64,000 nt of DNA from Gemmatimonadota bacterium (GTDB taxonomy: Bacteria; Gemmatimonadota; Gemmatimonadetes; Palauibacterales; Palauibacteraceae): assembly GCA_039589195.1 (NCBI GenBank), contig JBDHHV010000002.1, positions 1,126 through 65,125 on the forward strand, read 5' to 3'. Below are positions 28,658 to 36,515 of the stretch, in pieces. Each line of letters begins with the position of its first letter. Within the stretch, counting starts at the first letter, position 1. The notes under the pieces were generated by a model. It searched no databases. It was not told where the DNA came from and worked only from the letters and a program-made list of their open reading frames with translations. Made by a program: the position numbers and the translations under genes.

Positions 28658-29581
28658 TCAGCCGACCATCACCTCGCGTCGCATGGAGAGGGCCTCCACG
28701 CACCCGGCGACCTGCTCCTCCCAGCGTGGGAGCCCGAGGCCGAACCTCTCCTTCAGCTTGCGACCGCTCAACAGACTGTTCCGTGGCCGGTGGGCGGCGG
28801 TCTCGTACTCGGCCGAGGTAATGGGCCGGATGCTCTCCAGACGTAGCTGGGGGTCTCCCACGCGACGCAAGCAGGCCGCGATCTCCTCGGCGAAGCCGTG
28901 CCACGTCGTCCGACCCGGGCCGGCCAGGTGGTACAGGCCTCCGTGCTCGATCAGCGTCTCGGCCAGCGGCGGGCTCTTCCCGGACGCGTGCCGCAGCAGC
29001 TCCGCGGTGGCGGCAGCGATCTCCCAGCACCATGTCGGACTCCCGGTCTGGTCGTTCACCACCGACACCTCCACGCGGCGCCTGAACAGATCGAGCATGG
29101 TCGTGAGGAAGTTGCGCGTCCGACCGCCGTACACCCAGGCCACACGCAGGATCAGGTGCGGAGCGCCGACGGATCGCACGCCCTCATCCCCCAGTAGCTT
29201 GGTGCGGCCGTACACGCTCAGCGGTCCGGGGGCGTCATCTTCCTCGTATGGCTCGTCCTTCTCTCCGTCGAACACGTAGTCGGTGGAATAGTGGACGAGC
29301 GGCACAACCAGCCGGGCGGCTTCCTCGGCGAGAATCCGGGGGGCGTGCGCGTTGACGGCGAGCGCTTCATCGGGCTCGGACTCGGCGCGGTCCACGTCGG
29401 TGAACGCGGCCGCGTTGACGATCAGGTCCGGACGGAGCGCGCGCACAGTGCCCACGATCTCATCCGGGTCTGCCAGGTCCAACTCCGCCCGGTCCGTGGC
29501 GTGGACCTGTCCGAGCGGTGCGAGGGCGCGAACCAGCTTTGACCCGACCTGCCCGTTCCGGCCCGTCAGAAGGATCTTCAT
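28658..29581 (-). CDS. rfbD: dTDP-4-dehydrorhamnose reductase
   Basis: MKILLTGRNGQVG Rossmann N-terminus. YxxxK (YGRTK). Family-typical length. Start overlaps the rfbC stop. Confidence 0.88.
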   Translation of the reverse strand: MKILLTGRNGQVGSKLVRALAPLGQVHATDRAELDLADPDEIVGTVRALRPDLIVNAAAFTDVDRAESEPDEALAVNAHAPRILAEEAARLVVPLVHYSTDYVFDGEKDEPYEEDDAPGPLSVYGRTKLLGDEGVRSVGAPHLILRVAWVYGGRTRNFLTTMLDLFRRRVEVSVVNDQTGSPTWCWEIAAATAELLRHASGKSPPLAETLIEHGGLYHLAGPGRTTWHGFAEEIAACLRRVGDPQLRLESIRPITSAEYETAAHRPRNSLLSGRKLKERFGLGLPRWEEQVAGCVEALSMRREVMVG

Positions 29582-30186
29582 CAGGTAGCGAAGGCCGGAT
29601 GGGTCTCCAGAGCCGACTCCACGACGCCTGTGAACTCAGGCAGCCGGCCGGCGGCCCGAAGCTGCTCGAGCGTCAGGCCGGCTTCGTCTTTGGGCGACAG
29701 CACGGGAGTGCGTAGCGGCCAGTCGATCGAGGCCGCGGGGTCGTTCCATAGCAGCGTGTGCTCGTGACTCGGCTCGTACAGTGCGGTGCATTGATACACG
29801 AGGTCCACTTCGTCGCTGAGCGCTATGAACCCGTGCGCGAAATCGGGCGGCACGTACAGCTGCCTTCCGTTCTCGGCGGACAGCCGAACGCCGATCCAGC
29901 GCGCGAACGTGGGCGAGCCGACCCGGATGTCGACCGCCACATCAAACACCTCTCCGCGCGTCAGCGACACCAGCTTCCCCTGCGGGCGAGGGTATTGAAA
30001 GTGGAGCCCTCGCAGTACGCCGAAGAGCGAGCGGGAGCAGTTCACCTGGACGAAGTCTTCGTCGATCCCGGCCGCGCGGTAGCGCGGCGCCTGGTAGCAC
30101 TCCACGAACGCGCCGCGGGTGTCGCGGTGGATTTCGCGGTCCACGAGTATCGGCCCGCTCGGCTCGTGAATGGGATAGAACTTCAT
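29581..30186 (-). CDS. rfbC: dTDP-4-dehydrorhamnose 3,5-epimerase
   Basis: RmlC cupin motifs: RGLHFQ, DVAVDIRVGSPTF, ...YVPPDFAHGF. Confidence 0.9.
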   Translation of the reverse strand: MKFYPIHEPSGPILVDREIHRDTRGAFVECYQAPRYRAAGIDEDFVQVNCSRSLFGVLRGLHFQYPRPQGKLVSLTRGEVFDVAVDIRVGSPTFARWIGVRLSAENGRQLYVPPDFAHGFIALSDEVDLVYQCTALYEPSHEHTLLWNDPAASIDWPLRTPVLSPKDEAGLTLEQLRAAGRLPEFTGVVESALETHPAFAT

Positions 30187-35300: not shown

Positions 35301-35809
35301 GCTACCCGCGCGCGGACCGGCTCCCGGGACGGCTGTTGGACCGGCTCGTGGGCCGGCTCCTGGGACGGCTCCTGGGCTCGTCGAGCCTGTTCCGCGGCCT
35401 GTTCTCGTGCAACCACCAGATCGGCGAGCGGCACTTCGTCCCCCGGCGTCCGGCCCTGGCCGTGCAGGGCGATCCAGGCGTCGGTGTAGCCCGCGGCCCG
35501 CATCTGGGTCGCCGCGCGACGGGCGGGACCGATCGATACGAAGTCGCCCACCTGTACCCGGTAGTAGCCAGCACCGTGCATCACGTGGATTGACCAGCGG
35601 TCGCCGACGGCATCGCTGACGGCCTCGAGCTCGAGCGCGGCGGCCGATGCGTCCGCGTGCGCGGCGACCTGGACCCGGTACCTGCGGTCGCCGTTCGCCT
35701 GCCCCGCGGCCGCGCTCGACAGAACCACGAGACCACCGAGCGAGCCAAGCAGAGCCCACACGATTCGCCTCCAGGGCTGGAGCCGGTGTCCTTCACGTGA
35801 TCGACACAT
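32309..35809 (-). CDS. Large secreted protein: N-terminal SPOR domain plus CBM9-like/DUF5916 family domain. Start reassigned to the ATG with GAGGAAAAGG Shine-Dalgarno.
   Basis: Signal peptide [24 protein letters not shown]. SPOR-like [22 protein letters not shown]...[32 protein letters not shown]. Pro/Ala/Glu linker. ~850-aa C-terminal region with beta-rich DUF5916-like features and aromatic C-terminus ...LSYWLSLD. Confidence 0.5.
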   Translation of the reverse strand: [1166 protein letters not shown]

Positions 35810-36515
35810 GTGCCTTTTCCTCGAGTTGGTGGAACGACACGAGCTCGATTCCGGAATCCGACAGCGTCTGTCGCACACCCGGGTCGCAGAGCACCGCGAG
35901 CTCGATCGCACGCTCGGTGGCGTAGGGCGCGCCGGCGTCCGCATCAGCACCGGGATGACACCCCACCTCCGTCACGCCGGGCTCGAGCCCGGTCAGAATC
36001 CGGAGCAGGCGATCGAGGGAGATTCCGTCCGGGAAGGGCTCGCCCTTCCCGGTCTGGCCGTAGAAGTCACCGCAGTATCGAACGGAGCCGAGCCCACGCA
36101 CCGGGACGCCGAGCTCTGCGGCAATCGCGAGCACGGCGGATCTCGCAGGCTCGCCGGAGTGCACGTGCTGGTGGGAGTCGATGTGTGTGGGTTCCAGGCC
36201 CGTCATGCTTCGAAAGGCTCTCAGCTGTCTCTCCAGCTCTTCACCGACTGCCGCCGGGTCCGCGGTCGGCACGACCTCGTAGAGTGCCGACCACCGGCCG
36301 TCGCGATGCACCCACTCTCCCAGATCCAGGTGCAGCCCGAGGCTCAAGTCCGGGAAGCTCCTGGCCGCGTGCACCGCCGCCTCGGCATGCGGGCGGCGGA
36401 CGAGCACGCTCGCGCTCGTCACGACTCCGCGCTCGTGCGCTTTGAGCACGCCCCGGTTGACACCCGGACTGAGCCCGAAATCGTCGGCGTTCACGATCAG
36501 TCGGCGTTCGGTCAC
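35793..36515 (-). CDS. YdjC/ChbG/HpnK family carbohydrate deacetylase. GTG start.
   Basis: IVNADDFGLSPGVNRGVLKAHERGVVTSASVL and HIDSHQHVH motifs of the YdjC family. Confidence 0.75.
   Translation of the reverse strand: MTERRLIVNADDFGLSPGVNRGVLKAHERGVVTSASVLVRRPHAEAAVHAARSFPDLSLGLHLDLGEWVHRDGRWSALYEVVPTADPAAVGEELERQLRAFRSMTGLEPTHIDSHQHVHSGEPARSAVLAIAAELGVPVRGLGSVRYCGDFYGQTGKGEPFPDGISLDRLLRILTGLEPGVTEVGCHPGADADAGAPYATERAIELAVLCDPGVRQTLSDSGIELVSFHQLEEKAHVSIT

Follow-up and report, generated by a model that had tools for sequence, protein, structure and literature searches.

A SPOR-domain protein with a predicted DUF5916 outer-membrane barrel, encoded in a sulfotransferase/rhamnose glycan cluster of a Gemmatimonadota bacterium

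Proteins in which a wall-binding module is joined by a linker to a channel in the outer membrane (OM) follow a known design, represented by OmpM/SlpA (SLH), OmpA (OmpA_C), PilQ (AMIN) and intimin (LysM). SPOR domains recognise glycan strands stripped of their peptides, which are enriched where cells divide, and RlpA, an OM lipoprotein with a SPOR domain, shows that an OM-anchored protein can use this module in such a way (PMC6895207). Here we present an analysis of a 64-kb stretch of DNA from a Gemmatimonadota bacterium (64,000 nt of contig JBDHHV010000002.1; hereafter, the window), in which a gene of the minus strand encodes a 1166-residue secreted protein with a SPOR domain near its N-terminus and a C-terminal DUF5916 region predicted to be a large OM beta-barrel. 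The Gemmatimonadota are abundant in soil, and their envelope is almost unstudied.

The fusion of SPOR to DUF5916 had been proposed, and called uncharacterised, in a preliminary description made from the sequence alone, and it stands: both domains pass their Pfam thresholds. The literature searched held no mention of DUF5916/PF19313 and no description of SPOR fused either to DUF5916 or to an integral barrel. What is new is the use of SPOR as a tether on a predicted integral barrel, the membership of that barrel in an uncharacterised family, and a gene locked into a sulfotransferase/rhamnose glycan operon. SPOR thereby joins the short list of wall-binding modules fused to OM channels (SLH, OmpA_C, AMIN and LysM). 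For DUF5916, a large family for which no literature was found, the barrel assignment provides a compartment and a testable job, and one clade of the family is locked into a glycan operon that has no other OM component.

Domain organization and predicted fold

The features of the gene are given below, with the evidence for each in brackets (ORF, open reading frame; GC3, GC content at third codon positions; RBS, ribosome-binding site; AF2, AlphaFold2 model; pLDDT, predicted local distance difference test score).

32309..35809, minus strand: gene for the 1166-residue SPOR/Ig-like/CBM9-like/DUF5916 protein (ORF list, Pfam, GC3, orthologue gene call, RBS-like site)
32309-32311, minus strand: stop codon of this ORF
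35705..35809, minus strand: Sec-type signal peptide, residues 1-~35 (hydrophobic segment at residues 16-34; modelled helix 13-34)
35462..35686, minus strand: SPOR domain, residues 42-116 (PF05036, AF2 fold, PDB sequence match)
35198..35461, minus strand: linker, residues 117-204 (pLDDT 23-32, composition, variable gap region in the orthologue alignment)
34892..35197, minus strand: Ig/FN3-like beta-sandwich, residues 205-306 (AF2 pLDDT 88; weak FN3/Ig PDB matches)
34220..34837, minus strand: CBM9-like beta-sandwich, residues ~325-530 (Foldseek; no Pfam match on the protein itself)
32312..34210, minus strand: DUF5916 region, residues 534-1166 (PF19313, AF2, Foldseek, DSSP)
33962..34060, minus strand: most conserved motif of the family, residues 584-616 (invariant columns P585-F613 across 73 sequences)

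The PF19313 profile, matched over positions 4-561 of its 572, scored 169.1 bits at residues 534-1161 (cutoff 22.6). In an AF2 model of the whole protein, built on 73 family members (mean pLDDT 83, predicted template modelling score 0.75), residues 535-1160 form long antiparallel strands, ~26 by DSSP of the model, with pLDDT mostly >85 and a small beta unit inserted at residues 1065-1094. When the model was compared with the PDB using Foldseek, 149 matches were obtained at E<=1e-3, and all those listed were OM barrels except for the CBM9-type matches to residues 325-530. The barrel region matched MtrB (E=1e-9), Deinococcus SlpA (7zgx, 8ae1), AlgE, TonB-dependent transporters and LptD. From the model, DUF5916 is predicted to be a large OM beta-barrel of ~26 strands with the CBM9-like sandwich fused to the first of them, contrary to the preliminary description, which had taken the region for a carbohydrate-binding part of a secreted protein; the model does not point to a soluble binding or catalytic region. 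The most conserved motif of the family, residues 584-616, would sit in a long loop after barrel strand 3, where pLDDT is low over residues 588-609.

The DUF5916 region had no match in NCBIfam, and the family profile had only chance-level matches among PDB sequences. An enzymatic or other known-family identity was rejected because no enzyme match appeared in Pfam, NCBIfam or the PDB sequences. Strand-alternation hydrophobicity was dropped as evidence for a barrel, its values being 2.1 for the barrel strands and 2.6 for the strands of the soluble sandwich.

The SPOR assignment in the preliminary description was borne out. PF05036 matched residues 42-113 (cutoff 21): the full protein scored 27.7 bits, and residues 36-125 searched alone scored 33.9. 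The model has the RNP-like order beta-alpha-beta-beta-alpha-beta with a four-stranded sheet, at pLDDT ~90 (strands 43-51, 74-79, 82-90 and 112-116; helices 54-68 and 93-105), and the closest PDB sequence match was the SPOR domain of CwlC (1x60, E=0.03, end-to-end alignment). The glutamine of the first beta strand, which serves in the recognition of denuded glycan (PMC6895207), is present (YRVQV) and is retained in most orthologues.

In front of the SPOR domain, residues 16-34 are the sole hydrophobic segment of the protein: a transmembrane (TM) scan found no alpha-helical TM segments, and the signal peptide has no lipobox cysteine. Behind it lies the linker, which differs in length and sequence among orthologues and of which ~58 residues (147-204), rich in Ala, Pro and Glu, are disordered in the model. 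This disordered part is long enough to span the distance from the OM to the wall.

The Ig-like domain that follows, modelled as a small sandwich at residues 208-304, has no Pfam match and gave only weak FN3/Ig matches in a fold search against the PDB. Its cysteines C217 and C305 are invariant in the orthologue alignment, which fits an extracytoplasmic location. In an exhaustive search it proved to be a member of a very common repeat, with 3326 representative clusters and up to 15 tandem copies per protein, that occurs in proteins of the cell surface and in secreted ones, among them type IX secretion system substrates and metallopeptidases; the Pfam copy used does not cover this repeat family, apart from weak Big_7 matches. 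Next to it, residues 325-530 matched the CBM9-2 structure 1i82 (E=1e-6, TM-score 0.68 normalised to the target) and 4jpq (TM-score 0.66, likewise normalised), and this sandwich adjoins the first barrel strand via ~5 residues.

The ORF is a real gene, with a GC3 of 0.84 and, among the candidates scored, 853 relatives at E<=0.001. Named nearest relatives are almost all from Gemmatimonadota or Longimicrobiales metagenome-assembled genomes (MAGs). Its start was placed at the ATG at 35809, which has GAGGAAAAGG just before it and an RBS-like GAGGA upstream. The longest ORF (1213 residues) would begin at a GTG at 35950; this start was rejected in favour of the ATG because of the RBS, the intact signal peptide and the agreement with orthologue gene calls, including that of a 99% identical orthologue (P0001). 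The YdjC gene upstream ends with a TGA at 35793, so that the 17-nt overlap between the two genes, already given in the preliminary description, is exact. GC content ranges from 64 to 71% among the 2-kb blocks of the window, which has the look of Gemmatimonadota DNA, and no second DUF5916 paralogue was found in it.

Genomic context and relatives

In the sense of transcription, the minus strand reads YdjC (35793-36515), the 1166-residue ORF, rmlB, rmlA, rmlC and rmlD, and these genes complete a ~27-kb co-directional cluster that extends from about 56051 down to 28658. The cluster comprises, besides the barrel gene:

35793..36515, minus strand: YdjC-family deacetylase (PF04794, 167.7 bits)
28658..32227, minus strand: rmlB-rmlA-rmlC-rmlD, dTDP-L-rhamnose synthesis (Pfam for all four, contiguous)
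31166-32227, minus strand: rmlB (GDP_Man_Dehyd/Epimerase, 285 bits)
30186-~31169, minus strand: rmlA (NTP_transferase, 228 bits)
29581-30186, minus strand: rmlC (dTDP_sugar_isom, 209 bits)
28658-29581, minus strand: rmlD (RmlD_sub_bind, 330 bits)
36712..56051, minus strand: upstream glycan assembly block (Pfam; TM scan; homologous blocks at orthologous loci)
51424-53388, minus strand: MsbA-type ABC exporter
53292-56051, minus strand: GH2-like+GT2 membrane protein, first gene of the cluster

Eight SPOR-bearing relatives, of 49-99% identity, were examined for their context. Each of the eight genes comes immediately after a co-directional YdjC gene, often with a stop/start overlap, and ends the same block of sulfotransferase, glycosyltransferase (GT) and APH-type genes, with a methyltransferase in most; in 6/8 the rml genes are directly downstream on the same strand. 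The preliminary description had linked the protein to YdjC, to rhamnose synthesis and to the upstream glycan genes, and this conserved synteny shows the link to be more than a local accident.

A neighbour-joining tree of the CBM9 and barrel columns placed all SPOR proteins in one clade together with P0069, which lacks SPOR and still ends a GT/sulfotransferase/APH cluster. The glycan-cluster association is thus a property of that clade, in which SPOR was added at the N-terminus. The sister group holds many paralogues linked to BlaI/BlaR1-type regulators. The Ig-like domain is optional, and in P0019 a second SPOR domain takes its place. The locus of P0019 (L089, gene at 10001-13213) also encodes a separate 429-residue SPOR protein 8 kb downstream (21317-22606).

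For the family at large, at least 598 DUF5916 relatives were confirmed in species-representative genomes, and the context survey covered the best 80 of these loci, all of them encoding SPOR-less proteins of ~880 residues. One, L079 from a Rokubacteria MAG (about 400-11770), is the sole locus of the 80 with YdjC, GT and ABC neighbours: a distant SPOR-less homologue follows an ABC exporter and, further on, YdjC and a GT1_2-like gene. It is a second, independent link of the DUF5916 barrel family to YdjC-type glycan genes, outside the Gemmatimonadota.

The YdjC protein carries the metal and catalytic motifs of its family, an N-terminal Asp-Asp (NADDFG, from residue 9) and His-x-His (HIDSHQHVH), and it scores below the equivalog cutoffs of both ChbG (136.8 against 227) and HpnK (116.5 against 232.6), making it a family member that is an orthologue of neither. 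The TM scan found no signal peptide or TM segment in it, and deacetylation would accordingly be a cytoplasmic step of glycan assembly. On the other side of the barrel gene, the rml genes start 82 nt past its stop; the preliminary description was right to place dTDP-L-rhamnose synthesis immediately downstream. No terminator-like site was found on the coding (minus) strand between 27.5 and 38 kb. The longest rmlA ORF (30186-31295) overlaps rmlB by 130 nt and has an 80-residue Arg/Pro-rich N-terminus outside the nucleotidyl-transferase domain; the GTG at 31169, which forms a GTGA together with the rmlB stop, is the more likely start.

From the YdjC side, the block at 36712..56051 encodes a methyltransferase, an APH-type kinase, three GT1_2-like paralogues, a sulfotransferase, a GT2 and a GT4, and at its far end a gene with no assigned family, two more GT2 proteins, the ABC exporter and the GH2-like+GT2 protein. 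Between 28.6 and 56 kb, TM or signal segments occur only in this last protein, in the exporter and in the SPOR-barrel protein, and none of the scanned cluster genes belongs to the Wza, Wzz, AlgE, PgaA or BcsC-type Pfam families.

Some further features of the locus are recorded here. The first gene (53292-56051) fuses a GH2-like TIM-barrel domain to Glyco_trans_2_3 and has ~3 hydrophobic segments; its product may be a membrane synthase-like enzyme. At 36712-38309 (minus strand), the APH-type kinase stands beside Methyltransf_11, an arrangement that recalls WbdD, the kinase and methyltransferase chain terminator of ABC-dependent O-antigen pathways; the exporter of the cluster is of the MsbA/PglK type (51424-53388), unlike Wzm/Wzt. 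The three consecutive genes at 38306-41884 (minus strand), of ~400 residues each, are mutual paralogues, two having no Pfam match and one a weak Glyco_trans_1_2 match; they are also paralogous to the N-terminal part of the 875-residue GT2 at 48884-51508, and the trio is kept in all orthologous clusters. After rmlD, at 18317-28520 (minus strand), lie genes for an S9 prolyl-oligopeptidase and for two proteins of ~1300 residues with FG-GAP and ASPIC/UnbV domains, and the order of these three repeats downstream of the cluster in a relative of 50% identity (L005, 17275-23384). Directly upstream of the cluster, at 56371-59438 (minus strand), are a cytochrome-c/TPR protein and a LytTR-type two-component pair (a His_kinase-family sensor and a response regulator) that are possible regulators of the cluster.

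Possible roles of the SPOR-barrel protein

The termini of OM barrels are normally periplasmic. For this reason, and because SPOR binds peptidoglycan, we place the N-terminal modules in the periplasm. After Sec export, the DUF5916 region would fold as a barrel of ~26 strands in the OM, and all modules N-terminal to it would remain periplasmic. The CBM9-like sandwich would lie at the periplasmic opening of the barrel or inside it, preceded by the Ig-like spacer and, before that, the flexible Pro/Ala/Glu tether of 60-90 residues, at the end of which SPOR would bind peptide-free strands and so hold the machine at the wall, perhaps where the cell divides. In the cytoplasm, the products of the operon would make dTDP-rhamnose, assemble a glycan by means of the GT2, GT4 and GT1_2-like transferases, and decorate it through the sulfotransferase, the kinase with its methyltransferase and YdjC as an N-deacetylase; the MsbA/PglK-type ABC exporter would then carry the product across the inner membrane. 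In the periplasm, the SPOR-barrel protein would take up the glycan or glycolipid by its lectin-like module and pass it through the barrel, or insert it, to the surface.

Since the protein is the sole OM protein encoded in the cluster and has a lectin-like fold at the mouth of its barrel, we judge it most likely to be a peptidoglycan-tethered OM component that acts as the conduit or insertase for the glycan or glycolipid of the cluster, at a probability of roughly 0.45. If so, the OM step would be filled for a sulfated or rhamnosylated glycan linked to an ABC exporter in the Gemmatimonadota. The analysis itself shows the domain content and order, the class of the predicted fold, the conserved synteny and the clade; orientation towards the periplasm, glycan binding, translocation and septal targeting belong to the proposal.

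Several considerations weigh against this proposal. The transport or export role is one that we infer, and a product linked to undecaprenyl diphosphate, O-antigen for example, may need no dedicated OM channel once flipped by an ABC protein. Closure of the barrel, its exact strand number and the position of the CBM9-like domain, as a plug or as a periplasmic appendage, are predictions at the level of the model, and the C-terminus (…YWLSLD) has an aromatic pair 4-5 residues from the end, unlike the textbook beta-signal with its terminal aromatic. The CBM9 profile PF06452 did not match residues 320-535 even at E<=10, although it is recorded, from precomputed annotation, for some relatives (weakly for P0011). 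For this reason the CBM9 label is kept at the level of fold only; of the CBM9/DUF5916 type claimed for the large region in the preliminary description, DUF5916 was confirmed (169 bits) and CBM9 was recovered by fold and not by hidden Markov model. At the family level, 79 of the 80 species-representative loci have no glycan-cluster neighbours, so that DUF5916 as a whole is not a dedicated glycan exporter, and a general link between the family and glycan clusters was rejected on the same count. Instead, about 15 of these 80 SPOR-less genes directly follow co-directional genes for a BlaI-type repressor (Penicillinase_R) and a BlaR1-type M56 membrane protease (loci L009, L010, L015, L017, L024, L025, L031, L032, L035, L046, L050, L055, L072 and L088), which suggests that expression of that branch is regulated by envelope signals. 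Finally, the neighbour-joining tree that groups the SPOR proteins carries no support values.

The alternative that survives best, though we consider it unlikely, is a structural one: the protein would staple the OM to the peptidoglycan in the manner of OmpA or OmpM/SlpA, and might serve as a general pore, its place in the operon reflecting co-regulation and no handling of glycan. The succession of wall-binding module, linker and large barrel from N- to C-terminus mirrors that of Deinococcus SlpA, one of the best fold matches; moreover, most members of the family have no glycan context, and sister paralogues are linked to envelope regulators of the BlaI/BlaR1 type. However, across 49-99% identity the gene keeps strictly to its place between ydjC and rmlB, with translational coupling, and a cluster-linked member without SPOR falls in the same clade; co-regulation alone hardly explains such conservation. 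Also, the preference of SPOR for denuded, mostly septal glycan would make it a poor cell-wide staple.

Distinctly less probable is a surface lectin or anchor similar to Wzi, in which the barrel would be plugged and the protein would retain the completed glycan at the cell surface, or nucleate its assembly, without conducting it. An OM barrel with an attached lectin fold of the CBM9 type is encoded in a glycan locus, Escherichia coli Wzi reportedly follows this same logic, and the strongly conserved acidic loop at residues 584-616 might bind ligand at the surface. The difficulty lies in topology: the CBM9-like and Ig-like modules stand between SPOR and barrel strand 1, and would therefore be periplasmic if SPOR is, unless the linker threads the barrel. 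A lectin of this kind would also leave the cluster without any other encoded OM conduit.

The preliminary description had suggested a secreted or periplasmic protein that binds or processes carbohydrate and, together with YdjC, deacetylates a rhamnose glycan and anchors or processes it at the peptidoglycan. SPOR does bind peptidoglycan, YdjC is adjacent and translationally coupled, and a CBM9-like fold is present. We nevertheless regard this suggestion as very improbable, since residues 534-1166 are confidently predicted to have a membrane-barrel and not an enzyme fold, no enzyme family is matched in Pfam, NCBIfam or the PDB sequences, and YdjC lacks an export signal. The absence of a signal peptide or TM segment in YdjC, whose NADDFG motif begins at residue 9, speaks against deacetylation at the peptidoglycan in particular; nor does anything point to a glycan anchored there, it being the OM protein itself that is predicted to be tethered. 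An uptake channel importing external carbohydrate captured by the CBM9-like module, with the operon link serving to recycle the cell's own polymer, is the least probable of all: CBM9 modules are known chiefly from enzymes that degrade glycans (xylanases) and the fold matches include SusC and TonB-dependent importers, but no TonB box or plug family match was found in the 1166-residue protein, and the adjacent genes are all biosynthetic, with no glycoside hydrolases, SusD or sugar catabolic genes beside the barrel gene.

Returning to the conduit or insertase proposal, a bolder version can be formulated, which we offer as a speculation with the odds well against it. DUF5916 would represent an unrecognised class of OM translocon for glycans or glycolipids, comparable to LptD in its periplasmic beta-sandwich joined to a barrel of ~26 strands, and the Gemmatimonadota clade would pair with the MsbA-type exporter to bring a sulfated, rhamnose-containing glycolipid or polymer to the cell surface, with SPOR confining the machine to denuded peptidoglycan at septal or budding sites. 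Were this true, the surface glycan would be laid down at the sites of new envelope.

Comparison with known systems

Wzi of the group 1 capsule loci resembles the SPOR-barrel protein in being an OM barrel encoded in a glycan locus, with a carbohydrate-binding role proposed for both. It differs in its 18-strand barrel, its helical plug and the lack of a wall-binding domain, and the two have no sequence relationship.

AlgE with AlgK, PgaA and BcsC share with our protein the combination of an OM barrel and a periplasmic module for substrate or partner, encoded in a biosynthetic operon. Those systems have 16-18 strands and TPR modules, whereas here there are ~26 predicted strands and a lectin-like sandwich, and the inner-membrane partner is an MsbA-type ABC exporter. 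The 1166-residue protein matched only SPOR and DUF5916 in Pfam and belongs to none of the Wza/OPX, AlgE, PgaA or BcsC families; the fold similarity, for which AlgE is among the matches, is only generic (TM-scores of 0.34-0.39 normalised to the target).

LptD, which inserts lipopolysaccharide by means of a beta-jellyroll and a 26-strand barrel, likewise joins a beta-sandwich in the periplasm to a barrel of very large size (8h1s, LptDE, E=2e-5), and the operon described here includes an MsbA-like flippase. Unlike LptD, the protein has no LptD/OstA Pfam match, its sandwich has the CBM9-like fold and not that of the Lpt jellyroll, and no partner resembling LptE or LptA is encoded.

RlpA and PilQ are, like the SPOR-barrel protein, associated with the OM, and owe their position to a module with affinity for septal or denuded peptidoglycan. 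There is no barrel in RlpA, which is a lipoprotein lytic transglycosylase, and PilQ combines AMIN domains with a secretin pore.

OmpM/SlpA of Deinococcus, Thermus and the Negativicutes differ from the present protein in the wall-binding module, SLH, which recognises a pyruvylated secondary polymer, in place of SPOR with its denuded peptidoglycan, and in a trimeric coiled coil in place of a disordered Pro/Ala/Glu linker. There is no sequence relationship, and the Ig-like and CBM9-like modules and the glycan-operon location are particular to the protein described here. What the two share is the overall plan: an N-terminal wall-binding module, a linker that spans the periplasm and a large C-terminal barrel in the OM.

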